Origin: Candidatus Woesearchaeota archaeon
GTDB taxonomy: Archaea > Nanobdellota > Nanobdellia > Pacearchaeales > GW2011-AR1
Direction: 5' to 3'
NCBI GenBank assembly: GCA_964429545.1
Contig: CAYSCL010000003.1
Coordinates: 1 to 45,749 of the forward strand
Length of the DNA stretch: 45,749 bases
Shown here: positions 4,509-32,875 of the stretch, piece by piece
How positions within the stretch are numbered: the first letter of the stretch is position 1
Layout: every line of letters starts with the position of its first letter
Translations under genes and position numbers: made by a program
The notes under the pieces: model-generated
The model's input: the letters and a program-made list of their open reading frames with translations, nothing else
What the model was told of the DNA's origin: nothing
The model's database searches: none

Positions 4509-4736
4509 ACATTTGTCTTCAAATAAATTAAAATTGTTTGCTTTCGCAAATTATTATATTATAATTATCGCTTCTGGCGAAGACATTGGTTGAGATTAGA
4601 TTTTTGTGAATATTAAAAATTTTTAATGGAAGTTTTAATTAATTGGATTATGGGTTTGTGGGTTAACTCGAACATGAATGAAATAAACGAATATATTTGT
4701 CCTTGGTATTATTAATTTGATTTTCTAAATTGTTTT

Positions 4737-6780: not shown

Positions 6781-6809
6781 AATATATTCGTCTTTGGGAT
6801 TAAATAGTT
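6781..6809 (+). promoter_or_regulatory. Conserved upstream block (copy A) with TATA-like AATATATT
   Basis: aatatattcgtctttg-N4-ttaaatagtt lies about 47 nt before the ATG at 6828. The same 16-mer and 10-mer recur at 19009..19037. Confidence 0.45.
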
Positions 6810-6827
6810 TTTTTTGTTGATTTGGTT

Positions 6828-7751
6828 ATGGTTATTAACAATCTTGTGTTAGCTTTTGTATTGATTTTTATTTCAATTTTAATTGCCTCTCCCCTTGTAT
6901 TTTCTCAAGAAATTGTTTCTGATATTTATGAAGTTGATTCTTATAATTTGGGAATTTCAGGAGGGGAAGACACTGATAATCTAACTAGATCAATTTTGTT
7001 AGCTGAACCTGGAACAATTTTCGTTCAAAATGAATATGGAGGAGAAGAATACAGATATCCAGAAGATATTTTGATTATTGAAGGAACTTCTTCTGATGGG
7101 AGCGGATCAGGTGGTGGAGGGGGTGGCGGAGCAGGAGGTGGCGGAGGATGTATAACTAGTTTAGATTGTGAAAATGGTTTGCATTGTTTAAATGGTGTTT
7201 GTTTAAGATTATTTAATTTAACCATAAATAGAATTAATTCTCCAATTGAAAAGAATGGCTCATTTGAAGTGGTTTATGAAATTGAACCTTTATTCAATCC
7301 GGTTGAAGAAATATATGTTCAGGGATTAGTTTTTGATACAGGAGAAAATGTAATTTCTTTGGCTGAAGAAAATTTGTCTTTGAATAGGAATGAAGCTGTT
7401 GAATTGGTGAAAAAAATACCTGTCCCTTTGAATATAGAATCTGGGCCCCACAATTTTAGTATTAGAGCAATTTATTTGAATTTGTCTCAAAGTGATCAGA
7501 AAAATTATTTTTTAAGTGTCAGGGATGAAAATATTAGAGTTCGTAAACAAAGAGATTTAGATTTAATTATTGGATTTACAATTTTTTCTATTTTTATCTT
7601 GGTTGGTTTAGCATATTTAATAAGTTACTATATTAAAAATAAAGATGAAATTGTTTTCAAATTGGCATCATTTTTTAGTAATTTAGGTGAAAAAATAAAA
7701 ATTAAATGGAGGGAATTTATTTTATGGATAAGAAGAAAATTATCGTTGTGA
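6828..7751 (+). CDS. Exported Gly-run/Cys-containing protein with C-terminal TM anchor (first gene of surface operon)
   Basis: N-terminal hydrophobic signal (VLAFVLIFISILIASPLVFS), the GSGSGGGGGGGAGGGGG linker, a CITSLDCENGLHCLNGVC knot, then a beta-rich domain and the TM helix LIIGFTIFSIFILVGLAYLISYYI. Confidence 0.6.
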   Translation: MVINNLVLAFVLIFISILIASPLVFSQEIVSDIYEVDSYNLGISGGEDTDNLTRSILLAEPGTIFVQNEYGGEEYRYPEDILIIEGTSSDGSGSGGGGGGGAGGGGGCITSLDCENGLHCLNGVCLRLFNLTINRINSPIEKNGSFEVVYEIEPLFNPVEEIYVQGLVFDTGENVISLAEENLSLNRNEAVELVKKIPVPLNIESGPHNFSIRAIYLNLSQSDQKNYFLSVRDENIRVRKQRDLDLIIGFTIFSIFILVGLAYLISYYIKNKDEIVFKLASFFSNLGEKIKIKWREFILWIRRKLSL

Positions 7752-8356
7752 TTTTTTTTATTTTGATTTTTATTGGAGTTTTCATATCTGCACAAGAAAC
7801 AGAGGATTATATTAGTTCATTTGTGGAAAAACAAGGAATAGAAAAAAATTCTATAAAAAATATTTCTGAAATAAATAGAAGCAGTTTTCCTAAACAAATC
7901 TTGATTTCAAATATCGAGGAGAATAATGTTGGGATTTATGAAGTTGAATATTCTGAAGAGGGGATTGATAGAAATTTATTTGTTCTTAGTTATGGCACTC
8001 AAGAAATTGAAGAAGCAGAAACAAGTTTTATGGAAGGGAATTATAATTATTTAACTTTTGAAGGCCAAGAAGGAATTATTGGAGAATATTTAATGGTGGA
8101 TTATGGAAGCATAGTTGGTTTTTCAAGTTCTGTTTCTTTTTCGGGAGTTGGAAAAGTTGGAATTGAAATATACAAAAATGGAAATCCTCTTGGTTTATTG
8201 AATGAAATTTATTCAGAAGGAACGAATTATGATTATGAATTGCAATCAGAAAATATTAATCTTTTCTACCCTGGCGACATAATTTCTGTTTTTGTAAATT
8301 CTAATAATTTAAATATTCAGGAGGTGAATTCTATTGTCAAAGTCAAAATTTATTAA
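7724..8356 (+). CDS. Exported hypothetical protein
   Basis: The ATG at 7724 is preceded by a ggaggg SD-like sequence. Signal peptide MDKKKIIVVIFFILIFIGVFISA. It overlaps the end of the upstream gene. No recognisable family. Confidence 0.55.
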   Translation: MDKKKIIVVIFFILIFIGVFISAQETEDYISSFVEKQGIEKNSIKNISEINRSSFPKQILISNIEENNVGIYEVEYSEEGIDRNLFVLSYGTQEIEEAETSFMEGNYNYLTFEGQEGIIGEYLMVDYGSIVGFSSSVSFSGVGKVGIEIYKNGNPLGLLNEIYSEGTNYDYELQSENINLFYPGDIISVFVNSNNLNIQEVNSIVKVKIY

Positions 8357-9149
8357 AAAAAATTATACTTGGATACTTTTTTTTATTGCAATAGTTTTGA
8401 TAATTTTTGTTTTTTATCAGAATAATTTAACAGGAAGAATCGTTCAGGAAATTTGTAATAAGACAGAAGTTTGTGAAAATGTAACTGTTTTGGAATGTGA
8501 TGAATCTTGTGAAGAAGTTTGTGAAAATGTAACTGAAGAGGTTTGTTCTATTGAAATTGTTGAGACTTGTAACGAGGAATGTGTTGAAGAAAACAATGAA
8601 ACCATTTGTGGAGATGTTTGTTTTGAAGAAGAAATTGAAAATTGTAGTGAACAAACAATTGAAGTTTGTGAAAACGTTTGTGTGGAAGTCAATTGCACTG
8701 AAAGTATTATTGAAAATTGTAGTTTCCAAGAAATTTGTTATGAGGTTGAAATTAATGTTACTAATGAAACAATTAGTGAACCTATTCAAGAACCTGAAGA
8801 AGAGCCATCTCCTTCTCTTGAAGATACATTTAGGGAGGAAGTAACAGGAATACAAGAGATAAGAAAGCCAGAGGGAGAAGAAACAATAAGTTTAACTCAA
8901 CAAGAAATTTTTAACTTAGTTGCAGAAACTGGAGAGGGCGAAGTTAGAGTTACAAAATCTGAAGTGAAAGGCCGTCTTCTTATTTTAAGATTTGAAATTG
9001 GAAATTATTGGGTGGAAAAAGCTTATTATTATCCTCAAGAAAATTTAAATCAAAAAATTGAAAATGATAAAGTTGAATGGGTTAGAAAAATAATTGGAAT
9101 TAATAATCGTGAAATTCAAATAGTTAAAAAAGAGGAATTTTTGACATAA
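8334..9149 (+). CDS. Exported acidic Cys-rich repeat protein (E-[VI]-C / CENV repeats)
   Basis: The TTG start is 7 nt after a perfect aggaggtg SD. An N-terminal TM helix is followed by 16 Cys in about 105 aa, nearly all in an E/V/I-C context, with many N-x-T/S sequons. The DNA repeat gtttgtgaaaatgtaactg occurs twice. Confidence 0.65.
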   Translation: MSKSKFIKKNYTWILFFIAIVLIIFVFYQNNLTGRIVQEICNKTEVCENVTVLECDESCEEVCENVTEEVCSIEIVETCNEECVEENNETICGDVCFEEEIENCSEQTIEVCENVCVEVNCTESIIENCSFQEICYEVEINVTNETISEPIQEPEEEPSPSLEDTFREEVTGIQEIRKPEGEETISLTQQEIFNLVAETGEGEVRVTKSEVKGRLLILRFEIGNYWVEKAYYYPQENLNQKIENDKVEWVRKIIGINNREIQIVKKEEFLT

Positions 9150-9889
9150 TGAAATTGAAATTGTTTTTTATTTTGGTTTTGTTATTTGTTTCTTTGATTA
9201 GTGCAAACACAAATATTGCATTATCAGATCAAGGAACTGGCGTTAGAGTTAAAGCTACTGGGGCAATAGTTTCATCTGGCGAAATAACAATTTCAATTTA
9301 TGATAATTTGACTGGAGGTAATTTGATTTATTCTGAAACTTTTAATAATGGAATTAGGAATGGTAGGTGGAATGTTATGTTGGGTGAAAATCCGAATTTT
9401 CCTTTGAGACTAATTTTTGGTAAAAAATATTTTAGGGATTATTCAATAAATGGGGTTGATATAGATTTTAGGGATTATTCTGGTGCCGTGGTTGAAAGAC
9501 AATTTTTTTATTCTCCTTTGGGAAGTTTGGCAGATAGTAAAATTGTTGGAACTACAAATTCTACACATTCTGGAAATATAAGTAATGGATCTTTGGTTGG
9601 TTATTCGGCAGCAAATAAAATTTGTAATGATGAATATCCTGGAAGTCATTTTTGTTTAAAATCTGAAATACTCTCTACAATTGCTGCAGGCGATTATAAT
9701 TATTCGGGATATCCTTGGTTCCAAAATGGCCCTCCTGGTTATACTGCTAATTCAAATGATTGTAATGGTTGGACAAGTTCTAGTGGAGATTATTTGGGAC
9801 CATTTTGGAATTGGGAATTGAATGCACAAGCGGGAGCTGCTTTTTTGACTCCATGTAGTCAAGTAAAAGATTTGATGTGTTGTGGTTAA
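9149..9889 (+). CDS. Exported protein with C-terminal endostatin/DUF1554-like (C-type-lectin-fold-like) 4-Cys domain
   Basis: TAATG overlap with the upstream gene and a signal peptide. The C-terminal pattern GYSAANKIC..GSHFCLKSEI ... NDCNGWTSSSG ... PCSQVKDLMCC resembles the Cys spacing of endostatin/DUF1554. This is from memory, not searched. Confidence 0.5.
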   Translation: MKLKLFFILVLLFVSLISANTNIALSDQGTGVRVKATGAIVSSGEITISIYDNLTGGNLIYSETFNNGIRNGRWNVMLGENPNFPLRLIFGKKYFRDYSINGVDIDFRDYSGAVVERQFFYSPLGSLADSKIVGTTNSTHSGNISNGSLVGYSAANKICNDEYPGSHFCLKSEILSTIAAGDYNYSGYPWFQNGPPGYTANSNDCNGWTSSSGDYLGPFWNWELNAQAGAAFLTPCSQVKDLMCCG

Positions 9890-9890
9890 A

Positions 9891-12800
9891 ATGATAAAAA
9901 AAATATTATTAATTTTTGGAATTGTTCTTCTTACTTTTAGTTTTGTTAGTTCTGCAACTCTTTTAGTTAATGATCCAGTTTCTTGTCCTAGTGCAGATGA
10001 CACTGTTTTTCCAGGTGTTTCTTGTGCACCGGATGACATTTGTGGTGATGATGGTGGTAGCCCCCTTTGTTTAGATACTTCTGCAATTTCTGTTCCTTCT
10101 CCTGCAACAACGACCTCTAATCCTGGCTTACCTAGTCCTGGTTTTGGAGTTGATTGTTATAATGTTGGTAGCTCATGTGCAAGTAATATTCTTTGTCAAA
10201 GAGATTCTGCTTGTTATAATGTTAATAGATTGACACAATGTACTGATTGGGGGGTTTCTCAATGTGAAAATTGTATTTCTGGATATACTTATTGTGATGG
10301 AAGTTTTACAGATGGGAATGGTTGTGAAATTGATATTGGAACAACTTCTTACCCAGGAGAATCTAGTGCAGTTTATGATGCAGTTTGTTCGCCACAGTGT
10401 TCCTCTGGTTATTTAGATTGTGATGCGGATTTGGGAACTTCTGGTACAGGTTGTGAAATTCAAATAGGAGTTACTTCATTTGGAACAGCGAATGCAGTTT
10501 ATTCTACTTGTACAACTGCGATATGTGAATCTGGTTGGATGGCTTGTGAAGGCGATACAGCAACAGCGGATGGATGTAATTATCAAATTAGTTCTTCTTG
10601 TACAACAGCGGATGGAAAGCCGGGAACTTGGCAATCTGGATGTTCTTGTCAGGAATTAGCTCAGGAAAATTTTGTTACAAATACTTTAGCAAAAGGTTGG
10701 GGAGATTATTTGTTATGGGGAGAGCAGTGGAATCCGAATGGTTGGTTAATGAATTTAACTACAATAAATGGTAATTCCATTGGAATTGATAATGAAAGTT
10801 GTATTGTTTTTTCTGATGGTAGTCGTCAATGTAACGGTTCTTATGTTTCAGGAGGGGTTTCTTCTGATTCTGTTAATTTTTCTAATTATACTAATTGGTG
10901 GGCAGGAGTTTCTGGTTGGTCAAATAATTGGTTTATACAAAATGGCGATAATTTGGATTTCAATTCAACTAGGTTGGATCAACTTTATGTTCAACAGGGA
11001 GGAGATAATATTACGGGAAGATACACTTTTGATGGTAGTTGGATTAATGGAGGAGTTAGTATAGATTCTGGAGATATTTTTGCTCAGAGATTGTATGTAT
11101 ATAATGTAACTTCTTTGGCCGTAAATAATCTCAATATTAATGGTAGCTTGATTCCTCAAGTAGGTTTTGATGATACTTTTGATATAGGTTCTCCAAGTTT
11201 AAGATGGTCCAATGGATATTTTGCAAATGATATTTATATTGGTGGAGAAAGTATAGAAACTAGATTAAGTGCAATGAATTATAATTTTTCAAATGGTTTG
11301 TCTGAAAATGGAGGAACTGTTGAGTTGGGAGGAGAAGTTTCAGGATATGAAATTCTGAATAATGCAACCAACAATTACTTACAAATAAATAATTATCAAG
11401 ATAAGGGCCATGCATTTTATTCAATAATTAGTGATTATTATGATGGGAGAATTGCTCAATTTGATATTCAGGATAGTTTAATTAATTTTCAAACTGAATT
11501 AAGTCCTAATGAAATAGCAACGATTCAGTTAGATGGGGGATCTTTGGGTTTAACTACAGAGAATTATTCTCTTGGTTTTTCTCCATCCAGCGGAGCCATT
11601 TTTCTAGATAAGAATAGTGTTACCTTAGGCATACAGTATTTTTCAGATTATTCATCAAATTATACTAATCGTTCATTGGTTGATAAGGAATATGTTGATT
11701 TGGCTGTTTCTACTTCGTTAGGAGGATTAGAATTTGTCCCATATACTGGTGCAACACAAAATGTTGATTTGGGATCAAATGCAATAATTGCAAAAAATTT
11801 TGATGTTTCAGATAATAATAATCTGAAGATTGGAGCTGATGCAGGATATCAGAATACAGGAAATTATATGACTGCAGTGGGTTTTAATGCAGGACGTTCA
11901 AATTCTGGATTGCATTTAACAGCTTATGGTCAAGCTGCTGGTTATTTAAATTCAGGAGATAATATTTTAGCTATAGGCTCAAATGCAGCTCAACAAAATC
12001 AAGGAGAATTTTCTTCATTTTTTGGGAGATATTCAGGTTATTTGAATCAAGGAAATGGTTCTGTGGGTATCGGTGAAGGTTCTTTAAGGAGTAATTCTGG
12101 AAACAATGTTATTGGTATCGGATATGAAGCTGGAAGAGATAACACTTTGTCTAATCAATTTATCGTTAGACAAAATAATGTTAATTCTGTCCCTTTAATT
12201 CAAGGCGATTTTGCAACAGGCCAAATTAATGCAACTGATTTTTGTACTTATTCAGGGAATTGTTTGAGTAATGTTAGTGGTGGAGAAGATACTTCTAATT
12301 TAGTTCCTTATACTGGCGCAACACAGGATGTTGATTTAGGAAATAGAATAATTAATTCTGGAAATATTTATACAAGCAACCTTTTTGCAGAAATTAATGC
12401 AGTTGTTTCTATTGGGTATAATGCAGGAAATAATAATCTTGGTTCATCTTCTACAATGGTGGGAGCCCTTTCTGGATTAAATAATAAAGGTATAGCTTTA
12501 ACAGCTTTTGGTCTTGATTCGGGTTCTGAGAATGAAGGGAATTGGTCTACTTTTATTGGGGCAACTGCAGGACAGTTCAACAAAGGAAATAGTGTGGTTG
12601 CTTTGGGTTATGATGTTGGAATTAATAATTTAGCAAATAATTCAATATACCTTGGAAATAATGTTGGGCAAGATAATTCTATAAGTAATAGATTGATGAT
12701 AGATATTGAAAATACTAGTATTCCCCTAATTGATGGAAGATTTGATGCAGATATTTTAACAATTAATGGTGATTTGAATGCGACAGGGGATATTTGTATT

Positions 12801-14717
12801 ACTGGGGGAAATTGTTTGAGTGATGTTAGCAGCAGCGGCGATACTTCTAATTTAGTTCCTTATACTGGTGCAACACAGGATGTTGATTTGGGAAATAATA
12901 ATTTTGAGGCAAATAATTTTTATACAAGTGAAAGCAATTTATCCGTATATGTTGGAAATTTAATCACTCCTTCTTTGGAATTTAATGGAGTTACTGCAGT
13001 TGGATATTGGGCGGGAGGAAGCAATACAGCTGGTTTGGTAACTGCAGTTGGAGCAACTGCAGGATTAAATAATCAGGGAGGGGGTTTGACTTCTTTGGGT
13101 TATGCTGCGGGATCTCAAAATACAGGAGAAAATGTTATTGCGGTTGGATCAAGGGCTGGACAATTCAATGATGGAAATAGTGGCGTTTTTGTTGGAACAG
13201 ATTCTGGATGGAATAGTTCTGGGCTTGGAGTTACGGCAATAGGGCACGAATCTGGATATTATAATAGTGAAAGATTACTAACTGCCGTTGGAACTCAAGC
13301 AGGATATGAAAATTCTGGAGATAGAGTTGATGTTTTTGGAGTTTCTGCAGGAGGAAATAACATTGGAGATTATGTGGTATCCATTGGTGCAAACTCAGGT
13401 ATTTTTAATGAAGGTAATAATTCTGTCTTTGTTGGAAGTCTTGCAGGCCAATCGAATTTAGGAAATGATAATGTATTTATTGGAGCATTTAGTGGTTCTT
13501 CCTTGGCGGGTAACTATAATATTGGAATTGGCTCTTATGCATATAATATAGTTTCTGGAAATTATAATATAGGTATAGGATATAGCGCACTAACCTCAAG
13601 TACGGGAAGTAGAAATATTGGAATTGGTGGGCAAGCACTTTATAATAACGGAGGAGACAATGTAACTGCAATTGGAGATAATGCAGGATATGAAAATGCT
13701 GGAACTGGAGATAGGAATGTTTTTATTGGAAATGGTGCAGGATATCAAAATACTGCTGGAGATATTGTTGCTATTGGTTATTTTGCAGGAAGAGGCAATT
13801 CTGGATATCAAAGCACTTTAATTGGAAATAATGTTGGTTATAATAGTGATGGTTATGGATTAACAGCTGTTGGTTATCAGTCAGCTTATAATAGTAGTTG
13901 GTCAGATAATTTGGTTGCAATTGGACATGATGCAGCTTATGGAAACTCTGGAACAACTACAACTGCTGTAGGATATTGGTCAGCAAGAGGAAATAAAGGT
14001 GATGCTTTTACAGGTTTAGGTTATTATGCAGGTTGGAACAATCAAGGTAATTCTAGTACTTTTGTTGGATCAAATGCTGGATTAGGAAATACAAGAAATG
14101 ATGTAACTTCTGTTGGTTATAATGCAGGATATAACAATATCGGTGTTGCTTTAACCTCTTTAGGAAATGAAGCAGGATATAGTCAAGAAGGAGACAATAA
14201 TATTTTTATTGGTAGTGAAACAGGATGGATAAATGAAGGAGACAATGTAATTGCAATAGGGGATGGAGCAGGCTATGGAAATGCAGGCAATGATTTAATT
14301 TTGATTGGTAATGGAGTGGTTAATCAGAATAATGTGGGAAATAATTCTATCTTTATTGGGCATGATTCAGGAGTTAATAGTGAAGTTGATAGGGTTTTAG
14401 CTATAGGTTGGGAAGTTGCATTAGATATGGAAGGAACAAATAATATAGCTATTGGGGATCGTTCTGGATGGTTTAGTCTTGCTAATGATTCTATTTATAT
14501 TGGCCCATATTCTGGAACAGGTAATACAATTAATGAAAGATTAATGATTGATAATATTGATACAAACACTCCCCTAATTGATGGAAGATTTGATGCAGAT
14601 ATTTTAACAATTAATGGTGATTTGAATGTTACTGGTAATTTAAATGTTACAGGCAACATATATTTAGCTGGATGTATTGTAATTGAAGGCAATCAAACGT
14701 TGGGAACTTGTGTTTAG
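9891..14717 (+). CDS. Giant (1,608 aa) exported modular protein: Cys-rich N-domain plus three G-x-x-A-G-x-x-N-x-G solenoid modules with tail-fibre-like junctions
   Basis: The ATG lies 2 nt after the upstream stop, followed by the signal peptide MIKKILLIFGIVLLTFSFVSSA. The Cys-rich region has repeated C.SGY..CD....G.GCEI.IG.TS units. Long arrays follow, e.g. AVGFNAGRSNSG/AYGQAAGYLNSG. The junction motifs VPYTGATQ(D/N)VDLG (x3) and PLIDGRFDADILTINGDLN (x2, plus one degenerate copy) recur. Confidence 0.8.
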   Translation: MIKKILLIFGIVLLTFSFVSSATLLVNDPVSCPSADDTVFPGVSCAPDDICGDDGGSPLCLDTSAISVPSPATTTSNPGLPSPGFGVDCYNVGSSCASNILCQRDSACYNVNRLTQCTDWGVSQCENCISGYTYCDGSFTDGNGCEIDIGTTSYPGESSAVYDAVCSPQCSSGYLDCDADLGTSGTGCEIQIGVTSFGTANAVYSTCTTAICESGWMACEGDTATADGCNYQISSSCTTADGKPGTWQSGCSCQELAQENFVTNTLAKGWGDYLLWGEQWNPNGWLMNLTTINGNSIGIDNESCIVFSDGSRQCNGSYVSGGVSSDSVNFSNYTNWWAGVSGWSNNWFIQNGDNLDFNSTRLDQLYVQQGGDNITGRYTFDGSWINGGVSIDSGDIFAQRLYVYNVTSLAVNNLNINGSLIPQVGFDDTFDIGSPSLRWSNGYFANDIYIGGESIETRLSAMNYNFSNGLSENGGTVELGGEVSGYEILNNATNNYLQINNYQDKGHAFYSIISDYYDGRIAQFDIQDSLINFQTELSPNEIATIQLDGGSLGLTTENYSLGFSPSSGAIFLDKNSVTLGIQYFSDYSSNYTNRSLVDKEYVDLAVSTSLGGLEFVPYTGATQNVDLGSNAIIAKNFDVSDNNNLKIGADAGYQNTGNYMTAVGFNAGRSNSGLHLTAYGQAAGYLNSGDNILAIGSNAAQQNQGEFSSFFGRYSGYLNQGNGSVGIGEGSLRSNSGNNVIGIGYEAGRDNTLSNQFIVRQNNVNSVPLIQGDFATGQINATDFCTYSGNCLSNVSGGEDTSNLVPYTGATQDVDLGNRIINSGNIYTSNLFAEINAVVSIGYNAGNNNLGSSSTMVGALSGLNNKGIALTAFGLDSGSENEGNWSTFIGATAGQFNKGNSVVALGYDVGINNLANNSIYLGNNVGQDNSISNRLMIDIENTSIPLIDGRFDADILTINGDLNATGDICITGGNCLSDVSSSGDTSNLVPYTGATQDVDLGNNNFEANNFYTSESNLSVYVGNLITPSLEFNGVTAVGYWAGGSNTAGLVTAVGATAGLNNQGGGLTSLGYAAGSQNTGENVIAVGSRAGQFNDGNSGVFVGTDSGWNSSGLGVTAIGHESGYYNSERLLTAVGTQAGYENSGDRVDVFGVSAGGNNIGDYVVSIGANSGIFNEGNNSVFVGSLAGQSNLGNDNVFIGAFSGSSLAGNYNIGIGSYAYNIVSGNYNIGIGYSALTSSTGSRNIGIGGQALYNNGGDNVTAIGDNAGYENAGTGDRNVFIGNGAGYQNTAGDIVAIGYFAGRGNSGYQSTLIGNNVGYNSDGYGLTAVGYQSAYNSSWSDNLVAIGHDAAYGNSGTTTTAVGYWSARGNKGDAFTGLGYYAGWNNQGNSSTFVGSNAGLGNTRNDVTSVGYNAGYNNIGVALTSLGNEAGYSQEGDNNIFIGSETGWINEGDNVIAIGDGAGYGNAGNDLILIGNGVVNQNNVGNNSIFIGHDSGVNSEVDRVLAIGWEVALDMEGTNNIAIGDRSGWFSLANDSIYIGPYSGTGNTINERLMIDNIDTNTPLIDGRFDADILTINGDLNVTGNLNVTGNIYLAGCIVIEGNQTLGTCV
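12288..12344 (+). repeat. Module-junction DNA repeat, copy 1 (encodes DTSNLVPYTGATQDVDLGN)
   Basis: 55 of 57 nt are identical to 12840..12896 by manual alignment. Confidence 0.85.
12722..12780 (+). repeat. Module-end DNA repeat, copy 1 (encodes PLIDGRFDADILTINGDLN)
   Basis: 59 nt are identical to 14570..14628 by manual comparison. Confidence 0.85.
12840..12896 (+). repeat. Module-junction DNA repeat, copy 2
   Basis: Partner of 12288..12344. The two differences are synonymous third positions (ggc/ggt, tta/ttg). Confidence 0.85.
14570..14628 (+). repeat. Module-end DNA repeat, copy 2
   Basis: Partner of 12722..12780. Confidence 0.85.
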
Positions 14718-18174: not shown

Positions 18175-18468
18175 ATGAAAGAATGGAAGCTTGAAGATTT
18201 GAATGAAGAGTATAATTTAGATTTTGATAAAATTGTAAATTTGATTCAGGAAGAGAAAGCTAAAAGGGTTTTATTGCAATTTCCTGATGGTTTGAAACAG
18301 TATTCTAAAGCTATTGTTGATTATTTGAAAGAAAAAACTTCTGCTGAATTTATTATCTATTTGGGAACTTGTTTTGGTGCTTGCGATACTCCATTGGGAA
18401 TGGAAGACAAGGTTGATTTGATGATTCAGCTTGGACATAATTCTCTTATGCCTAATTATTTGAACTGA
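18175..18468 (+). pseudogene. dph2: Truncated dph2 (diphthamide synthesis radical-SAM enzyme), N-terminal ~97 aa only
   Basis: AKRVLLQFPDGLKQYSKAIVDYLKE...YLGTCFGACDTP...DLMIQLGHNS aligns with the N-terminus of archaeal Dph2 as I recall it. A stop follows at aa 97, and a minus-strand gene begins 32 nt later. No continuation appears in any + frame. Confidence 0.65.
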
Positions 18469-18499: not shown

Positions 18500-18970
18500 T
18501 TAGGAATGTTCTGGTTTTTTGAATTTTATTTTTCTTTTTTCTAAAGATTTTTTGAAATTAATTCTATCAAACAAAAATTCCCCTATAAAAGCAAAAGGTA
18601 TTGCTATTAGTGTGGCAGTTAAAATAATATTAGAAGTTATTTGATCCCCTATTGAAAAATGAAAAGCTATTATATCTTCAACAACCCCCAAAATAATTCC
18701 AAAAATTAAAAATTCTGAAAAAATTTCTATTTTTCTATATTTCTTTTTTAATTTGAATATTTTTAAAAAATCTATTTTATCTATAACATATTCTCCTAAA
18801 AATGCAAAGGGTAAAGTTATTAAAAAAATTATTAAAAAAATATATGGGGTTATTGTTTGATTACTGACAATTTTTATTAAAATTATATCTTCCAATATTC
18901 CAAAGATTATCCCTCCAATTAAAAATTCTAAAAAAACGAAAACTCTTTTATTCATTGTTTTTTCAAACAT
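18500..18970 (-). CDS. Internally duplicated 4-TM membrane protein (two ~70-aa halves)
   Basis: The halves FLEFLIGGIIFGILEDIILI...ITLPFAFLGEYVIDKIDF and FSEFLIFGIILGVVEDIIAF...IAIPFAFIGEFLFDRINF are clearly homologous. Confidence 0.6.
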   Translation of the reverse strand: MFEKTMNKRVFVFLEFLIGGIIFGILEDIILIKIVSNQTITPYIFLIIFLITLPFAFLGEYVIDKIDFLKIFKLKKKYRKIEIFSEFLIFGIILGVVEDIIAFHFSIGDQITSNIILTATLIAIPFAFIGEFLFDRINFKKSLEKRKIKFKKPEHS

Positions 18971-19008
18971 ACTTGATTGACAAAATTAGTTTTGTAATAA
19001 TTTATGCA

Positions 19009-19037
19009 AATATATTCGTCTTTGTCGTTAAATAGTT
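19009..19037 (+). promoter_or_regulatory. Conserved upstream block (copy B)
   Basis: aatatattcgtctttg-N4-ttaaatagtt lies about 47 nt before the ATG at 19056. Same block as 6781..6809. Confidence 0.45.
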
Positions 19038-19055
19038 CTTTTGATTTTTTATTTT

Positions 19056-19139
19056 ATGAAAAAGTGTAAAAAATGTGGGAAAGAACTTTGTAAAAAATGT
19101 GGGGGCGGATGTAAATGTGCTCCTTGTAAATGTAAATAG
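19056..19139 (+). CDS. Cys-rich micro-protein (27 aa, 8 Cys), metallothionein-/zinc-knuckle-like
   Basis: ATG..TAG reads MKKCKKCGKELCKKCGGGCKCAPCKCK. It is below the ORF-track cutoff and is paralogous to the next ORF. Confidence 0.5.
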   Translation: MKKCKKCGKELCKKCGGGCKCAPCKCK

Positions 19140-19148
19140 TTAATAAAA

Positions 19149-19322
19149 ATGGATGAAGATAAAAAAACAAATAAGCCGGAAGGCTATTGTGTAGAATGTG
19201 GCCACATATTATGTCCTAATTGTGGAAAATGTTGCCATTGTGGATCATGTAATTGTAATCATTGCCATCCTAAAGAAGAAAGTGATGAAACTGAAGAAGA
19301 AATACCCGTTAATTATGCTTGA
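19149..19322 (+). CDS. Cys/His-rich micro-protein (57 aa, 10 Cys, 4 His) with acidic tail
   Basis: MDEDKKTNKPEGYCVECGHILCPNCGKCCHCGSCNCNHCHPKEESDETEEEIPVNYA. It shares C-x2-C-G-x3-C-x2-C-G-x2-C-x-C-x2-C-x-C with the 27-aa ORF. Confidence 0.55.
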   Translation: MDEDKKTNKPEGYCVECGHILCPNCGKCCHCGSCNCNHCHPKEESDETEEEIPVNYA

Positions 19323-19327
19323 TATTT

Positions 19328-20032
19328 TCACAACCAACCATTAAGTAAAGCTACTCCTACCAAGAATAATAAAATTCCTGCGATTAAGTGTAATTTCTTT
19401 ATGTTTCTTTCTTTCCAACCTGAAACTTCATCTACTTTGCTAAATCCAAAATAGACCAAGAGAACTATTGCAAGCATTGGTATTATAAACAATAAATTAT
19501 AATATGCTAACCATGGAAGTGCCCCCAATATTCCTAATTCAGCTAATAAACCTGAAGCTATAATGTATGGTCCCATTGTACAAGGCAGTAAGAAAAGTGT
19601 AACAACAAAACCAATTATGAATGCTCCACTTGGTGAAGTTATTTTTTTTATTATTTTTTTTACTTTTGGTCTCATAAATAAAGGCATTTCTGTTGCGAAG
19701 GATCCTTTTTTGTAATTAAAATAATCTTTTATATTTAATCCTCCTAAAACCATCGCCAATATTGCTAGTCCTTTGTAAACATAAATTGAATTTTCTCTTA
19801 AGAAATTAGCAAATATTTTGAAGAATTGAATAATAATTGTGCCATATACTAAATATCCAATATATATTGAAGAAATAAAGGCTAATCCTGCAAAAAGAAC
19901 ATTCTTTTTTTTCTTAGGATTTTCAATTAAAATAGAAACCAAAACCATTGTTAGAACTGCTATTGCGCAAGGGTTTACTGAATCTGCTAGAGCCAAAGCA
20001 GTTATTCTCCCAAAACTCAAAATGTCTGCCAT
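19328..20032 (-). CDS. ccdA: CcdA/DsbD-family transmembrane thiol-disulfide electron transporter
   Basis: A 6-TM profile with the two hallmark membrane-embedded Cys motifs, DSVNPCAIAVL and LLPCTMGPY. Confidence 0.7.
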   Translation of the reverse strand: MADILSFGRITALALADSVNPCAIAVLTMVLVSILIENPKKKKNVLFAGLAFISSIYIGYLVYGTIIIQFFKIFANFLRENSIYVYKGLAILAMVLGGLNIKDYFNYKKGSFATEMPLFMRPKVKKIIKKITSPSGAFIIGFVVTLFLLPCTMGPYIIASGLLAELGILGALPWLAYYNLLFIIPMLAIVLLVYFGFSKVDEVSGWKERNIKKLHLIAGILLFLVGVALLNGWL

Positions 20033-20033
20033 T

Positions 20034-20375
20034 TTAACAATTAGTTAACTCCTTTAATTTATTTATTGATTTGACTCCAGTGTATTGTTTTTCTTTTATT
20101 ATCCACGTTGGAGTTGCTAAAATTCCTTCACATTTTTCAGTTTCATAAAAACAATCCACCATTTCTATATATTTTATGTTTTCTCCAAACAACTCTTCTT
20201 GTGTTTTACAGTGGGAACAACCTAATTGAGTGTAAAGTGTTGCTTGTTCTCCAATGCATTGAACTATTTCTTCATCTGTTTCTGGAGAAGGTTTTGTTAA
20301 TGAAAAAAATGAAATTAAAATTATTCCTAAAATAATTATAGACATTACAATTCTGTTTTTTGTCACCGCTTTCAT
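20034..20375 (-). CDS. Membrane-anchored extracytoplasmic thioredoxin-like protein (CxxC)
   Basis: N-terminal TM anchor. YTQLGCSHCKTQEELFG...TPTWII resembles the Trx-like domain fused to bacterial VKOR (WCPHC..QKELFG...YPTW). It lies 1 nt from ccdA. Confidence 0.7.
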   Translation of the reverse strand: MKAVTKNRIVMSIIILGIILISFFSLTKPSPETDEEIVQCIGEQATLYTQLGCSHCKTQEELFGENIKYIEMVDCFYETEKCEGILATPTWIIKEKQYTGVKSINKLKELTNC

Positions 20376-20382
20376 TTTAATT

Positions 20383-20661
20383 TTAATCTTTGTTTATTTT
20401 TATAGATTTCCCATTTACAATTGCATTTGAAACTTTTTTTATTGCAGATGTTAATATTCTGGATAAAGTTGGTTGTGAAACTTCCATTTTTTTAGCTGCT
20501 TCATTTTGAGGTAAATTTTTTGTATAAATTAATCTCAGTGCTTCAAATTCTGGCATTTCTAATTCAATTTCTTCTAAATCAGATGCAGGAATTCCTGCTG
20601 GCTTAAAATGATTTGTATTTGGTTTTCCCCTTACTCTTCTGTTTTTACATGGCCTTGGCAT
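20383..20661 (-). CDS. DUF134 (UPF0251) putative DNA-binding protein
   Basis: MPRPCKNRRVRGKPNTNHFKPAGIP...EALRLIYTKNLPQNEAAKKMEVSQPTLSRIL is the family N-terminal signature plus a sigma-70-region-4-like HTH. Confidence 0.85.
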   Translation of the reverse strand: MPRPCKNRRVRGKPNTNHFKPAGIPASDLEEIELEMPEFEALRLIYTKNLPQNEAAKKMEVSQPTLSRILTSAIKKVSNAIVNGKSIKINKD

Positions 20662-20711: not shown

Positions 20712-20870
20712 TTAATCACAATTTCTTCTTCTACAGCCCCGCTTACCAAAGCCTCTTCCTTGGCCTCTTCCTCTTGGAAGTTCTTGTGGTTCTTTTCCTT
20801 CACAGTTCCCCATTTGTCTTCCTGTTTTTGGGCCGTTTCCGTTTGGTCCTGTTCCGTCTTTATTTGGCAT
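20712..20870 (-). CDS. DUF5320-family small protein (52 aa)
   Basis: The internal Met gives MPNKDGTGPNGNGPKTGRQMGNCEG...RGRGQGRGFGKRG, matching the MPxxDGTGPxGxGPxTGR signature. The listed 97-aa ORF adds an implausible AT-rich N-extension. Confidence 0.7.
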   Translation of the reverse strand: MPNKDGTGPNGNGPKTGRQMGNCEGKEPQELPRGRGQGRGFGKRGCRRRNCD

Positions 20871-20895
20871 TTTTTGTTTTTCTCCTAATTTAATT

Positions 20896-20911
20896 ATGAA
20901 TAAGTATTCAT
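20896..20911. promoter_or_regulatory. Palindrome ATGAAT-N4-ATTCAT, copy 2
   Basis: atgaataagtattcat lies between a TATA-like element (about 20917..20924) and the DUF5320 start. Confidence 0.4.
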
Positions 20912-20928
20912 TATACTTTATAAATGTT

Positions 20929-20944
20929 ATGAATTTGTATTCAT
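20929..20944. promoter_or_regulatory. Palindrome ATGAAT-N4-ATTCAT, copy 3
   Basis: atgaatttgtattcat. The context tataaatgtt(a/t)tgaat(t/g)tgtattcat is repeated at 20687..20711. Confidence 0.4.
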
Positions 20945-21119
20945 AATTATTTAATTCATTTTGTTCGTAATTGATAATTAAATTATCTGTTCTGCTGTAG
21001 AGCATTGAGAATTGGAGAGTTGTGAAAGGGAGTTAATAAAAAACTAACAATAATTATTTATTTCATTAAGAATATAAAAATAAAAATAAAAAATAAGAAG
21101 TAAAAATTTAATGACTTTA

Positions 21120-22660: not shown

Positions 22661-24385
22661 CTACTTCTTCCCTTTCAAAAACTGGTTTAAGAATTTAAAA
22701 TATTCCTTGTTTTCTTTGTTGGCCATTTTTTCTACTATCAGTTCTGGTGTGGAGTGGGCGAGTTTTCCTAGAACTGGATTGTGGTTTACTATTAGTTCGA
22801 AGCTTTCTGTTAGTCCTGTTGCTTCTATTCCGTCTATTCTTGTTTTTTCTGGAAGTATTTTTTGTATTTCGTGTCCTAAATGTGTTGCGATTATTAGATA
22901 GCAGTTTTGTTTTATGTAGTAGTCTGTTGTTGCGGCTATTATGTTTCCGGCAACACCTGGTTCTGTTACTGCTTCTATTTCGTCTGCAAGAATTAATGTT
23001 TTATTTCCTGGTTTTATTTTTGACATTTGTGTTAGAAGTGTTTCGAATGCTCCTTTCAAGTTTGAACCTTTATTTTTTGCAAAATAATATATTTCTTCAA
23101 ATAATGGAAATTTGTTTTTTCCTGATTGTGGAAGACCTAATTGTGTTATAGTTATTAGTTGCAAAACATGTTCGATTAGTGTTGTTTTTCCACCGGAGTT
23201 CGCCCCTGTTAAAATTGATGCTTGTATATTTTCTGAAAGATTGAATGAAATTGGCTGAGGGTTTTCTAAGAAAACATTATTTGATTTTTGTATTGCTAGT
23301 TCGTGATTTATTTCTGGGAAGTGCATTTCTTTGTTTATGAATTTAGAAATTCCAGCTAAGAAGTCGAAGTATAGAATTAAATCGTTTAGGTCTTTTAGTT
23401 TTTCAGGAATTTTTTTTAATTTATCTGAGTTATCTTTTATTGTTTCTGCAAGTTCTGAAAATTCGTTTGCATTTTGATGTTGGATTAGTTTTTGAAGTTC
23501 TTCTTCGTCTAGTTTTAGTGGAATTCCAATTTCTAAAACTTGCCTTGGAATTTTTAATTCTTCAATTGTTTCTTCAATTGTTTTTTTTAATTCTTCTGGC
23601 AAGTCTCCTTTTGAAAGTATTTGGATTAGAGAATTTCCTGAAAGAGTTAGTTGTTTTATTTTTTCTTCAATTTTTTGATTTGCAGTTATTATTTTTGATT
23701 CTATTTCATCTGGATCAATTGAATTTGATTCTCCATCTTTTGTTAAATAAATTAAGGGCATTAATTCTTCTGTCAGTTCTTTTAGAGTTTTAATAGTTGG
23801 ATTTTGTTTTATTATTTCTAAATTGTTTGTGTGACCTGAAAATTCTTCTAGAAATCTTTCTAAATAAATTTCTTCAATATTTTTATAAAATACTGCTTGG
23901 GGCAAGGACTCTAAAGCTATTTGGAATTCTGGACAGTTAATTACTTGAACCACATCTTTTTCTTCCAATAGAACTGTGTCTTGTTCTGAGATTAACATTT
24001 GAACTGGACAATTCATCTTTTTTAATTTGTTATATGTTTCTGCGTCTTCTGTTACAACGCTCACATCATATCGCGGTTTCCACCAAGAACGGGGAGGAGC
24101 AAGGGATTCTAGGAAATTGTTTTCTAATTGAATGTTTTGTAAATTTGAGAAAAATAATTGCCTCTTTTTTATTTCTGTTACATCATTTGTAAATTTGAAG
24201 AAATTAAATATGTTTGAAGTTTCAGAAAAAATAAAATTTTCAGATATTTTTTGTAAAGTTCTGTTGTGGATTCTTTTTGCATCAGTTGTTTTGTAAATGG
24301 ATTTTAATGGCGAAAGGGAAGTTTTTGTTCGATTGAATGGTGAGAGGTTGTTTTCTCGGATAAATGAGAGTATTTCGGATTTCAT
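22661..24385 (-). CDS. MutS-family domain-V ATPase (MutS2-like, no recognisable mismatch-binding or Smr domain)
   Basis: Walker A LTGANSGGKTTLIEHV, Walker B LILADEIEAVTEPGVAG, and a long coiled-coil-like N-region. Confidence 0.75.
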   Translation of the reverse strand: MKSEILSFIRENNLSPFNRTKTSLSPLKSIYKTTDAKRIHNRTLQKISENFIFSETSNIFNFFKFTNDVTEIKKRQLFFSNLQNIQLENNFLESLAPPRSWWKPRYDVSVVTEDAETYNKLKKMNCPVQMLISEQDTVLLEEKDVVQVINCPEFQIALESLPQAVFYKNIEEIYLERFLEEFSGHTNNLEIIKQNPTIKTLKELTEELMPLIYLTKDGESNSIDPDEIESKIITANQKIEEKIKQLTLSGNSLIQILSKGDLPEELKKTIEETIEELKIPRQVLEIGIPLKLDEEELQKLIQHQNANEFSELAETIKDNSDKLKKIPEKLKDLNDLILYFDFLAGISKFINKEMHFPEINHELAIQKSNNVFLENPQPISFNLSENIQASILTGANSGGKTTLIEHVLQLITITQLGLPQSGKNKFPLFEEIYYFAKNKGSNLKGAFETLLTQMSKIKPGNKTLILADEIEAVTEPGVAGNIIAATTDYYIKQNCYLIIATHLGHEIQKILPEKTRIDGIEATGLTESFELIVNHNPVLGKLAHSTPELIVEKMANKENKEYFKFLNQFLKGKK

Positions 24386-31308: not shown

Positions 31309-31632
31309 ATGAAATTTTATTCGCATAGAAAAGAGAAAAGAAAATTGGATGAAATAAAAATTTCTTTTTTAGAAAAATTTTTGATTAATATTCCAAATAT
31401 TGTTGACTATCCCAAGTTTAGATACATCGTATGGAAAAATGAAGCAACATTTGAATTAGATCCTTATTATTCGGAGGGTTTATGGAAAGGAATGGTTAAT
31501 TCTAGGATTGATGATTATAAGAGAATGATTATTGCTAAAAAAGATAATAAAAAAATTGAAGATGTTTTGACATTATATAAAAATACAAAGTGTGGGAATT
31601 TAATGATTTGTGTTTGTAAAAAATTTAATTGA
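31309..31632 (+). CDS. Hypothetical protein (107 aa)
   Basis: ORF only. Confidence 0.45.
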   Translation: MKFYSHRKEKRKLDEIKISFLEKFLINIPNIVDYPKFRYIVWKNEATFELDPYYSEGLWKGMVNSRIDDYKRMIIAKKDNKKIEDVLTLYKNTKCGNLMICVCKKFN

Positions 31633-32056
31633 TTATTTCATGGCCTAATTCGGTTAGTTTTTTTATGAATGGATATAATTTGTTATTTTGATATGCGGGA
31701 CATTTTCCAGAAATTTTTATTTTGTCTAAATGGACAAAAATTGGGAATTCATGACAAACCCTTGGTCTTTCGGGATTTTTGTGGATTGTGCATTTATTGT
31801 CTTTCAATGCGGGGCAACCTCCAAGACTATTTGCAAAATCTATTTGAAATTTTCCAGAGAAAGGGAATTCTTTTATTTTTCCTTCTTTTTCTAATATTTC
31901 TTCTTTTTGTTTTGTTGCAATTTGATTTAGTTGGTGTCTTCTTACCATAATATAACCTTTTTTACAACAATATGCTTTACATTCGTTAATACAGAAATCA
32001 GAAATGGCCCTTCTTGCCTCATCAGCAATCAACTCAGCTTCTTTAAATTTTGACAT
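31625..32056 (-). CDS. YkgJ/UPF0153 family Zn/Fe-chelating CxxCxxCC protein
   Basis: CINECKAYCCKKGYI plus GGCPALKDNKCTIHKNPERPRVCHEFP. Confidence 0.7.
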   Translation of the reverse strand: MSKFKEAELIADEARRAISDFCINECKAYCCKKGYIMVRRHQLNQIATKQKEEILEKEGKIKEFPFSGKFQIDFANSLGGCPALKDNKCTIHKNPERPRVCHEFPIFVHLDKIKISGKCPAYQNNKLYPFIKKLTELGHEIIN

Positions 32057-32119: not shown

Positions 32120-32875
32120 TTAGAAAAAAACCCTCAAAATAATAATTATTCCTAGGATAATGCTTGCTCCTGCAACAAAATATTTTAATCTCTTTGCTTT
32201 TGTTATTTTAACTCCAATGACTGCTAGGGGAGTTGAAATTAATCCTCCGATTAATAATGAAACTACTAGCCCCCAATTTGTATGGTTTATTCCATTTATA
32301 ATTAAATAAATCAAGAAACCTACTAAACTTACAACACCTTCGGATAATGCAGTTATTCCTACTGCATGTTTACTTTTCACTCCCGAGGATATTTGACCTC
32401 CCGCCAAGACTGGCCCGTATCCTCCTCCAGAAATTCCTTTATTGAAAGAAGCAAGGGAAGCAAAAACAATTAACCTCTTTTTTGAAAATTTCCTTTTTTT
32501 CTTAAATATGAAAATTGAAATTCCAATTATTACAATAAGTAATCCGATATATATTTTCAGAATTGTTTCTGGAATGTTTATTGCAACAAAGGCTCCAACG
32601 ACTATTGAAATTATTCCGAAGATGATTAGAATTGAAAGTATTTTTTTATTTTCTTTTGTGAAAAAATTTATGTTTTTGAATCCGTGATGCATTGATCCGG
32701 CAATTAAACTTAAAATTGCACTAGTTAATATTACTGCAGAAATTACCTCTAAAGGTGCAAAACCCATCAGTAATAAAATTGGAGTTAATGTTCCATACCC
32801 CATTCCTGCATATGCGTCAAAAAATTCTAAAATAAAAGCTGCAATTATTGCTGAAATGAATAATTGGAATATCAT
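32120..32875 (-). CDS. TauE/SafE (TSUP, DUF81) family anion exporter/permease
   Basis: 251 aa with about 8 TM helices and an internal repeat carrying G-rich motifs (AGMGYGTL, ISGGGYGPVLAGG). Confidence 0.75.
   Translation of the reverse strand: MIFQLFISAIIAAFILEFFDAYAGMGYGTLTPILLLMGFAPLEVISAVILTSAILSLIAGSMHHGFKNINFFTKENKKILSILIIFGIISIVVGAFVAINIPETILKIYIGLLIVIIGISIFIFKKKRKFSKKRLIVFASLASFNKGISGGGYGPVLAGGQISSGVKSKHAVGITALSEGVVSLVGFLIYLIINGINHTNWGLVVSLLIGGLISTPLAVIGVKITKAKRLKYFVAGASIILGIIIILRVFF

Follow-up and report, generated by a model that had tools for sequence, protein, structure and literature searches.

Two conserved cysteine-rich micro-protein genes in a Nanoarchaeota chromosome and their predicted metal binding

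The ORF1 and ORF2 genes and their relatives

The window, which is the whole 45,749-nucleotide (nt) stretch of contig CAYSCL010000003.1 analysed here (Candidatus Woesearchaeota archaeon, assembly GCA_964429545.1), contains two short, cysteine-rich open reading frames (ORFs) that lie 9 nt apart on the forward strand, as an earlier note on this DNA had described; they are called ORF1 and ORF2 in this work (Table 1). On comparison with their homologues, both ORFs were shown to be real, separately terminated and conserved genes, and they probably represent a new family of predicted metal-binding micro-proteins. ORF1 encodes MKKCKKCGKELCKKCGGGCKCAPCKCK and ORF2 encodes MDEDKKTNKPEGYCVECGHILCPNCGKCCHCGSCNCNHCHPKEESDETEEEIPVNYA. 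The DNA across the window is AT-rich, with 29% G+C.

Both ORFs had at first been taken to be missed by gene calling. ORF1 was indeed uncalled in every public gene set examined, but ORF2 had already been called in public records (P0001 in NCBI, ENA and Logan), where it is listed as 'hypothetical' and carries neither a name nor a Pfam domain. ORF1 and ORF2 share one reading frame in the window (19149 - 19056 = 93), where only a TAG and three sense codons separate them. An assembly error at this in-frame TAG was rejected, as three independent assemblies of one population, namely the window, the sister-sample locus L002 and the Logan locus L003, have the same DNA between 18971 and 19327. Because all three come from the same population, their identity gives no evidence of evolutionary conservation. 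TAG is the rarest stop codon over the 48 tabulated ORFs of the window (33 TAA, 9 TGA and 6 TAG), and it is an ordinary stop there, since five other large ORFs also end with it. The window is metagenome scaffold MUDA16-1_SAMN06140901 scaffold_246, and the ENA copy of that scaffold, L001, showed 19 single-base differences from the window, those listed lying at 12270-12287, 17341 and 23948-24104. They are clustered in the repeat region of a gene for a 1611-amino-acid (aa) protein and in a 574-aa MutS_V-like gene, leave ORF1 and ORF2 unaffected, and are probably strain variants or the result of another assembly version.

The ORF1 peptide contains 8 Cys in 27 residues (29.6%, in agreement with the earlier estimate of about 30%), packed into 23 residues, and has no aromatic residues. 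It is strongly basic in the window (net charge +9, isoelectric point (pI) 9.4) and throughout its family (net +4 to +9, pI 8.7-9.5). The window ORF2 is acidic, with a net charge of -7, and the charge of its family is mostly acidic as well (net -3 to -8). Cys makes up 17.5% of ORF2 overall and 10/26 of its core, and its potential ligands, 10 Cys and 1 His, lie within 27 residues. Neither ORF carries a signal peptide, and here we agree with the earlier note.

Loci were taken from genome and metagenome collections and from exact-protein look-ups, and ORF1 homologues were identified by a six-frame scan. ORF1 was found in five lineages (the window, L006/L007, L011, L012 and L017/L018), where the homologues are 26-29 aa long and each has its own stop codon (Table 1). 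In every adjacent case outside the window (L006/L007, L011 and L017), the frame of ORF1 differs from that of ORF2. The other frames and TAA stops of the relatives, and the 3.3 kb that separate the two genes in L012, therefore indicate that ORF1 is a separate cistron and not a read-through fusion. A read-through or fusion product was rejected on these grounds, with TAG an ordinary stop in the window. Judged from these relatives, the frame shared by ORF1 and ORF2 is incidental and peculiar to the window, so that the description of the duplicates as maintained in frame holds for each ORF alone and not for a frame common to both. The start of ORF1 was placed at ATG 19056 and not at TTG 19041 because the residues before the ATG are not conserved.

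By the Nei-Gojobori method, the window ORF1 and that of L006, its nearest relative, differed by 8.5 changes at 12.7 synonymous sites and by 3.5 at 65.3 non-synonymous sites, which corresponds to a ratio of non-synonymous to synonymous rates (dN/dS) of ~0.03. For more distant pairs, in which dS is saturated, dN/dS was 0.23-0.28. Strong purifying selection on ORF1 was shown by these codon comparisons. Thus, the check that the earlier note had proposed came out in favour of both ORFs, which are conserved in relatives with intact frames and under purifying selection.

No ORF1 was found within the examined flanks of L004, L005, L008-L010, L014, L015/16, L019 and L020, and a search of the protein database with a merged ORF1 and ORF2 profile returned no ORF1-like protein. 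In L017, the public gene call at 353-592 (P0024, 79 aa) runs the ORF2 homologue upstream, out of frame, through the ORF1 homologue. This artefact gives P0024 a false N-terminal extension of 22 residues, which masks the real 28-aa ORF1 gene at 331-417.

A word-index search with ORF2 returned the self-match alone. An exhaustive HMMER scan of 1.84 billion representatives returned nine full-length relatives (52-61 aa, 55-64% identity, E = 2.5e-13 to 1.5e-9). It also picked up P0013, a distant protein with two modules, and some repeat proteins of a generic kind whose CxxCG knuckles resemble those of zinc ribbons. P0004, P0012 and P0014, which are long and made of generic repeats of such knuckles, were rejected as members of the family. 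A profile search extended the ORF2 family to 22 clusters of 52-79 aa, all of them 'hypothetical', and where the source gives an organism name it is Nanoarchaeota, Nanoarchaeia or 'archaeon'. No relative of ORF2 was found in the viral contigs searched.

In the alignment of the 22 sequences, the positions M1, D4, C14, C17, C22, C25, C28, C29, C31, C34, C36, C39 and H40 are invariant, and G12, L21, N24, G26, P41, E43, E47, N55 and Y56 are near-invariant. The signature of the family can be written as MDxDKK ... C-x2-C-x4-C-x2-C-G-x-CC-x-C-x2-C-x-C-x2-CHP-K-E, followed by an acidic tail and a C-terminal NY[SA]. As read from this alignment, the combination of 10 Cys and a His, CHP and the C-terminal NY[SA] gives this new Cys-rich family a precise signature. 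The window ORF2 begins with MDEDKK and ends with NYA, and its aromatic residues are a variable one at position 13 and the near-invariant Tyr56. At the DNA level the invariant Cys columns alternate between TGT and TGC, and the median ratio of non-synonymous to synonymous differences per site (pN/pS) was 0.44 over 91 pairs, with pS near saturation. Because the Cys codons vary synonymously and the median pN/pS has this value, selection on ORF2 acts on the protein.

Two ORF2 paralogues were found in L005, from a Nanoarchaeota metagenome-assembled genome (MAG), at 4867-5037 and 6001-6174. Each has its own promoter block, and they flank an N-terminal gene of a split dph2 (dph2-N, 5536-5835). Because this genome holds two paralogues, the family appears to duplicate repeatedly. 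The distant relative P0013 (L022 555-914, 119 aa) is very acidic and has two tandem Cys modules and GPNY near its C-terminus; its contig consists of 2.5 kb of small unannotated ORFs, and its context is uninformative. From P0013 it follows that the Cys module exists outside the Nanoarchaeota clade and can duplicate within one polypeptide.

The gap-free alignment of ORF1 and ORF2 on an eight-Cys core, by which they had been recognised as duplicates, was borne out. It has 11 identities over 25 positions, a number that composition-preserving shuffles reach with P = 4e-4 to 1e-3. When the ORF1 family (A4) was aligned with the ORF2 family (A3) by hhalign, a probability of 97% and an E-value of 1.1e-10 were obtained, and residues 2-26 of ORF1 were paired without gaps with residues 12-36 of ORF2. 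In a merged alignment that included both P0013 modules, seven Cys columns were invariant in 28/28 rows. By these alignments, ORF1 and ORF2 were shown to be true paralogues. ORF1 corresponds to the ORF2 core minus the MDEDKK segment, Cys28, C39-H40-P41, the acidic tail and the NY[SA] end.

Promoter block and genomic neighbourhood

ORF1 is preceded by a block with the layout AATATATTCGTCTT-N5-TTAAATA-21 nt-ATG (19009-19058). The same layout occurs at 6781-6830, and the proposal that the pair shares a promoter block with a Cys-rich operon was therefore upheld; the two copies are identical at 34/46 positions (vs 19005-19050). In L006 and L012 the block lies at equal distances upstream of ORF1. At loci without an ORF1, or with an unlinked one, it stands before ORF2, as in L012, in front of both L005 paralogues and in L015, with variants in L008/L010 and L017. 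An A/T box (TTAAATA, TTAAATT, TTATATT or ATATATT) is present at the position of box 2 in most aligned lineages. Wherever ORF1 lies directly upstream, ORF2 has neither a block of its own nor a Shine-Dalgarno-like sequence, and the same is true of the spacer in the window.

In archaea, a TATA-like box that keeps a fixed 21 nt from the ATG is to be expected where the mRNA is leaderless. With the transcription start placed by this promoter geometry, a bicistronic ORF1-ORF2 mRNA that is leaderless or near-leaderless is predicted, and from the spacing of the genes we infer that ORF2 would be translated as the second cistron by coupling or re-initiation. Box 1 holds a conserved CG dinucleotide, which is rare in the genome, and could be a regulator site. 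A palindromic operator (CGAA-N4-TTCG) within box 1 was considered and found to be unsupported, with 10 one-mismatch matches against 6.6 expected and zero perfect sites. Further exact copies of an 11-mer at 4687 (-) and 28361 (-) have no obvious downstream gene. A scan for sigma-70 promoters and terminators, a model not applicable to archaea, gave no enrichment, and neither the Rfam nor the tRNA scan of the window gave a match.

The second copy of the block heads an operon (6822-14717) of unannotated, partly Cys-rich proteins, one of which is 1611 aa long. The true start of the ORF at 6822 would be the in-frame ATG 6828, because this ATG follows the block at the fixed distance of 21 nt. The proteins of this operon had no significant Pfam match, and one DsbA_N match fell below the cutoff. 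In L012 (2615-5947), ORF1 leads two unannotated genes for proteins of 884 aa and 174 aa with signal-peptide-like N-termini; over 108 aa, the N-terminus of the larger protein shares 36% identity with the translation of window 9149-9460, which lies inside the 6822-14717 operon.

Table 1. Features around ORF1 and ORF2 in the window, and homologues of ORF1 in related loci.
Feature	Position	Strand	Description
Promoter block copy 2	6781..6830	+	box 1 6781-6794, N5, box 2 6800-6806, 21 nt, ATG 6828
dph2-N	18175..18468	+	split dph2, N-terminal gene; 97 aa; Dph2 domain 1; CFGACD cluster cysteine
Membrane-protein gene	18500..18970	-	156 aa; between dph2-N and ORF1/ORF2
Box 1	19009..19022	+	AATATATTCGTCTT; starts 47 nt before first ATG; candidate regulator-binding/promoter element
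Box 2	19028..19034	+	TATA-like TTAAATA; ends 21 nt before ORF1 ATG
ORF1	19056..19139	+	ATG to TAG; 27 aa; 8 Cys; first cistron
Spacer	19140..19148	+	TTAATAAAA; nine nt between ORF1 stop and ORF2 ATG
ORF2	19149..19322	+	ATG to TGA; 57 aa; 10 Cys + His; second cistron
CcdA/DsbD_2-like gene	19328..20032	-	convergent; ORF2 ends 5 nt before
Thioredoxin-like gene	20034..20375	-	membrane-anchored; CSHC
DUF134 gene	20383..20661	-	helix-turn-helix
DUF5320 gene	20712..21005	-	
ORF1 homologue, L006/L007			MKKCKKCGKEICKKCGGCKCTPCRCK; 26 aa; TAA; 5-nt spacer to ORF2
ORF1 homologue, L011			MKKTCEVCKEKVCPKCGGCKCKPCKCK; 27 aa; TAA; 1-nt spacer to ORF2
ORF1 homologue, L017/L018			MENKCKKCGSDLCSGCGNCSKCGTCKCK; 28 aa; TAA; 1-nt spacer to ORF2
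ORF1 homologue, L012			MKECKCKKCCEVCCSKCGQGCKCKPCKCK; 29 aa; TAA; 3.3 kb upstream of ORF2, two genes between

The window is ordinary chromosome, with genes for ribosomal protein S10, seryl-tRNA synthetase, aIF5B, phosphoenolpyruvate synthase, cyclophilins, short-chain dehydrogenases and transporters. A viral or mobile origin was rejected, as viral contigs yielded no relatives and the window consists of housekeeping chromosome.

Upstream of the ORF2-family genes, the neighbour seen most often is dph2-N, a more consistent one than the downstream string and one that the earlier note had overlooked. The product of the window dph2-N matches only residues 4-87 of archaeal Dph2 enzymes, which are 327-337 aa long, and the gene is conserved at 94-99 aa across loci. 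Split Dph1/2 genes have been described in DPANN archaea (PMC6143161). A pseudogene was rejected, as this mini-Dph2 is the known N-terminal gene of the DPANN split Dph1/2, with a conserved length. It lies directly upstream of ORF2 on the same strand, at 44-238 nt, in L004, L005, L014, L019 and L020/L021. In the window, L006 and L012 it is close by, with other genes inserted between it and ORF2. There is no dph2-N in the 6 kb examined upstream in L015/L016, and the C-terminal half of Dph2 is not found near ORF2 in any locus examined, nor within the window. The 156-aa membrane protein encoded between dph2-N and ORF1 was present only in the window and L006 (82% identical) among the loci compared.

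Downstream of ORF2 lies the convergent string of CcdA-like, thioredoxin-like and DUF134 genes to which the earlier note had linked the pair. The string recurs downstream of ORF2 in L004, L006, L012, L014, L015/16, L019 and L020, often at a remove of one or two unrelated genes. The CcdA-like protein carries the membrane-embedded Cys motifs NPC and LPC. The neighbours are highly similar across loci, with 69-94% identity for the CcdA-like protein and 61-88% for the 574-aa protein. In L019 (7237-8447), a Fur-family gene replaces DUF134, and a divergent ZIP permease gene adjoins the CcdA-like and thioredoxin-like pair; L020 adds a NifX-like gene. Taken with DUF134 and DUF5320, these genes give hints of metal handling in the neighbourhood.

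The contig of L004 (JAFGUD010000169.1, 3090 bp) was binned in a MAG named 'Bacteroidales bacterium', and it holds dph2-N, an ORF2 homologue and a CcdA-like gene. With a CcdA-like gene 82% identical to that of the window, it is almost certainly a mis-binned Nanoarchaeota contig. Elsewhere in the window, the 143-aa product of a gene at 31625-32056 (-) has 5.6% Cys and a CxxCxxCC domain (PF03692) that putatively chelates zinc or iron, and a TauE/SafE-type exporter gene (32120-32875, -) adjoins that gene.

Possible functions of the two micro-proteins

No match above the cutoff was found for ORF1 or ORF2 in Pfam, NCBIfam, PHROGs or PADLOC. The sub-threshold matches (Siva, B-box and a homing-endonuclease model) all fall in Cys-knuckle regions. 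A ferredoxin-type CxxCxxCxxxCP motif is absent from both ORFs, and there was no ferredoxin match in Pfam or NCBIfam. Cys-rich precursors of ribosomally synthesised and post-translationally modified peptides, such as the SCIFF type, gave no Pfam or NCBIfam match either. No maturase gene adjoins the pair in any locus examined, and the sole radical S-adenosylmethionine-like ORF of the window lies 19 kb from the pair. When the PDB sequences were searched, the best matches were the ribosomal proteins L40e (E = 0.085) and L37e (E = 0.56), neither of them significant, and the knuckles of L40e align with C22-x2-C25 ... C36-x2-C39-H of ORF2.

AlphaFold2, run on the 22-sequence ORF2 alignment, gave a mean predicted local distance difference test score (pLDDT) of 66, and of 76-81 in the core (residues 11-40). 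The model, of moderate confidence, has no beta-strands and one short helix, and its core has almost no regular secondary structure. A moderately confident core of this kind is what would be expected for a metal-held fold. A Foldseek search of the PDB with the ORF2 model returned nothing significant (best E 1.7), and the weak matches were all zinc-knuckle domains (RING, rubredoxin and DksA).

The reading that we tentatively prefer, and to which we give somewhat less than an even chance, is that ORF1 and ORF2 are metal-handling micro-proteins that act as a basic/acidic pair. Both genes would be co-transcribed from one promoter in the Nanoarchaeota (DPANN) chromosome and separately translated, and their spacing of 1-9 nt would couple the translation of ORF1 and ORF2. 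ORF1 is a stand-alone copy of the ORF2 Cys core. Each peptide would fold around metal ions bound by cysteine thiolates, with zinc as the default guess; folding around metal is the most likely course because neither peptide has the size or the hydrophobic residues needed to fold alone. Because of the ligand density (8 in 23 residues for ORF1 and 11 in 27 for ORF2), a multi-metal thiolate cluster or two interleaved sites would fit better than a single zinc finger. This density and the CC/CxC runs resemble metallothionein clusters more closely than canonical zinc fingers. The opposite charges of the two families (+4 to +9 vs mostly -3 to -8) suggest a basic/acidic pair, and the N-terminus of ORF2 and its NY[SA] end would dock onto a further partner. 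The pair may thus serve as a cytoplasmic metal store, buffer or chaperone.

Both ORFs fall within the size and composition of metallothioneins (< about 10 kDa, about 15-30% Cys, CxC/CC/CxxC). The likeness to metallothioneins that the earlier note had pointed out holds for the dense CxxC/CC/CxC pattern, with 8-11 ligands in 23-27 residues, but it does not extend to a match with any metallothionein family. A metallothionein-like role is plausible from the Cys pattern. No paper in the literature searched contains the phrase 'archaeal metallothionein' or 'metallothioneins in archaea', in line with the earlier remark that such proteins are essentially undescribed in archaea. That ORF1 and ORF2 are the first metallothionein-type proteins described in archaea, a new reading but a less exotic one than the partnership with Dph2 considered below, is rather unlikely. 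From the sequences as a whole we infer that the proteins bind metal and act as a pair, and likewise the metal and the physiological role proposed for them.

Several results weigh against the preferred reading. Neither ORF matched a metallothionein model in Pfam or NCBIfam at E <= 1 (Metallothio_Pro and SmtA/BmtA included), and neither had a sequence or fold match to a metallochaperone in Pfam, NCBIfam, the PDB or Foldseek. Nothing in these results separates Zn from Fe, Cu, Ni, Co or disulfides. Of the haloarchaeal C(P)XCG micro-proteins, some were found to hold zinc, some another metal and some none; AlphaFold2 could not tell these cases apart, and the motif by itself does not predict zinc binding (PMC11241148). 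The conserved termini and Tyr56 of ORF2 are unlike those of a classical metallothionein, and the conserved non-Cys features (MDEDKK, CHPKE, the acidic tail and NY[SA]) argue for a specific partner and not for a simple metal buffer. Because most ORF2-bearing lineages have no ORF1, ORF1 is an accessory paralogue and the pair cannot be obligatory. The Fur and ZIP genes of L019 are the only direct metal-homeostasis neighbours seen, in one lineage, and the metal-related neighbours may be inherited context. Furthermore, all loci belong to one tight clade, and their synteny is therefore partly inherited and weak as functional evidence; this is also true of the link to the CcdA-thioredoxin-DUF134 string, however often the string recurs in relatives.

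The main rival, which we consider unlikely, is that ORF1 and ORF2 are micro-proteins with structural zinc fingers that serve in regulation, the basic ORF1 binding nucleic acid and the acidic ORF2 modulating it or binding a protein partner; the other explanations trail behind it. C(P)XCG is a motif class and not a homologous family, and both peptides belong to it by motif. Each of the window peptides, both < 70 aa, has a pair of knuckles of the C(P)XCG type, which read CKKCG and CKKCG in ORF1 and CVECG and CPNCG in ORF2. Across each family, conservation extends to the Gly of the second knuckle but not to that of the first, which counts against a zinc finger. The net charge of +9 and pI of 9.4 of ORF1 would suit a nucleic-acid binder, but the acidic ORF2 is unlikely to be one. 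A specific partner is implied by the conserved non-Cys motifs of ORF2, and precedents exist in the co-transcribed zinc-finger protein Brz and small basic protein Brb (PMC3184054) and in many archaeal C(P)XCG micro-proteins (PMC11241148). However, no homology to described zinc-finger micro-proteins was found by Pfam, NCBIfam or PDB sequence searches, and CC/CxC runs with 8-11 ligands in 23-27 residues are far denser than the two-knuckle fingers described.

It is improbable that ORF2 is an iron or iron-sulfur redox partner of the split Dph2, a functional analogue of eukaryotic Dph3/Kti11 that would pass electrons or iron to the [4Fe-4S] cluster, which has to form across the separately encoded Dph2 halves. 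We give slightly less credit to the fuller version, in which the ORF2 family is the missing small metal partner of archaeal Dph2, non-homologous to Dph3/Kti11 and recruited in those Nanoarchaeota that have a split Dph2, and ORF1 is a minimal modulating paralogue. To our knowledge, no archaeal Dph3 homologue has been described. The position of dph2-N as the commonest upstream neighbour, flanked by two ORF2 paralogues in L005, speaks for such a partnership, and Dph3 is, like ORF2, small and Cys-ligated and acts as electron and iron donor for Dph1-Dph2 (PMC8251694). However, ORF2 has no Pfam match, and the CSL zinc-finger (Dph3/Kti11) model in particular matched 0/22 members of the ORF2 family at E <= 1. 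ORF2 also has its own promoter box, the adjacency to dph2-N is broken in the three loci with inserted genes and missing from the 6 kb upstream in L015/L016, and the C-terminal half of Dph2 is near ORF2 in no examined locus. The genomes are all close relatives, and the adjacency may be inherited.

We regard it as somewhat less probable again that the two micro-proteins are thiol-redox proteins, that is, dithiol/disulfide carriers of the cytoplasm that either feed the CcdA-like transporter and its extracytoplasmic thioredoxin-like partner or are serviced by them. The convergent CcdA-like/thioredoxin-like pair lies by ORF2 in at least seven loci, with the NPC and LPC motifs in the former protein and CSHC in the latter. 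Against this, the genes are convergent and not co-transcribed, unrelated genes often lie between them, the known donors of CcdA are thioredoxins, and the ten invariant Cys and the His in CxxC/CC/CxC spacing are a metal-ligand signature and not that of a redox relay. Least probable is that ORF1 is non-functional as a protein, whether a leader peptide tuning ORF2, the N-terminal module of an 88-aa TAG read-through product or a decaying duplicate: the frame shared in the window across TAG and three codons, the place of ORF1 immediately upstream of ORF2 in four lineages and the rarity of TAG (6/48 ORFs) would allow it, but it is already largely refuted by the comparative data, in which ORF1 lies in another frame with a TAA stop (L006/L007, L011 and L017), five other normal window genes end at TAG, ORF1 of L012 has its own promoter box and heads other genes 3.3 kb from ORF2, and the peptide sequence is conserved beyond its Cys content with dN/dS of ~0.03-0.28.

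Comparison with known systems

Small Cys-rich metal-binding micro-proteins are already well known from archaea as a kind, and the ORF1/ORF2 family is confined to one clade. It has no Pfam or NCBIfam model and no solved relative, and no paper on it was found. The immediate impact is modest, as the family is small, belongs to one clade and is of a familiar general kind. Annotation systematically overlooks micro-proteins of < 60 aa or leaves them as 'hypothetical', and the DPANN archaea, which are uncultured, hold many unknown genes. ORF1 offers a clean case from comparative genomics of a 27-codon ORF that gene callers do not see and that is a genuine gene under selection. A link to the split dph2, if functional, would bear on the reduction or repair of archaeal Dph2.

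The only PDB sequences that resemble ORF2 are the non-significant matches to the L40e and L37e zinc ribbons, which have four Cys where ORF2 has ten. Dph3/Kti11, which serves Dph1-Dph2, is small and holds its metal through Cys ligands, and the ORF2 gene adjoins a fragment of a Dph2 gene. ORF2 is, however, not homologous to Dph3/Kti11 and has ten Cys against four, and the link between them is one of gene adjacency within one clade.

ORF1 and ORF2 share several features with the archaeal C(P)XCG micro-proteins, such as HVO_2753 and HVO_0758 of Haloferax volcanii and the Brz and Brb pair of Halobacterium, which are likewise archaeal, < 70 aa and cytoplasmic and have CxxCG knuckles (PMC11241148, PMC10716476, PMC3184054). 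Some of these micro-proteins act with a co-transcribed small basic protein (PMC3184054). ORF1 and ORF2 are not homologous to them, and they carry 8 or 10+1 ligands in 23-27 residues, with CC and CxC runs, in place of two or four well-separated knuckles. Unlike Brz and Brb and the other haloarchaeal systems, the two partners are paralogous to each other, and their host belongs to a Nanoarchaeota clade.

The prokaryotic metallothionein SmtA has about 56 aa and holds a Zn4Cys9His2 cluster. ORF2 differs from SmtA/BmtA in its lack of a Pfam match, in its Cys spacing and in its conserved non-ligand termini and Tyr. No metal-sensor gene is consistently adjacent at the ORF2 loci, Fur being present only in L019. 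ORF2 nevertheless resembles SmtA/BmtA (Metallothio_Pro) in its size, its high Cys content, its CxC motifs and its cytoplasmic location, and each has eleven potential ligands (10 Cys + 1 His in ORF2 vs Cys9His2). If metal binding holds true, the ORF1/ORF2 family would offer a compact new metal-thiolate module, which might be the first metallothionein-like protein from archaea.

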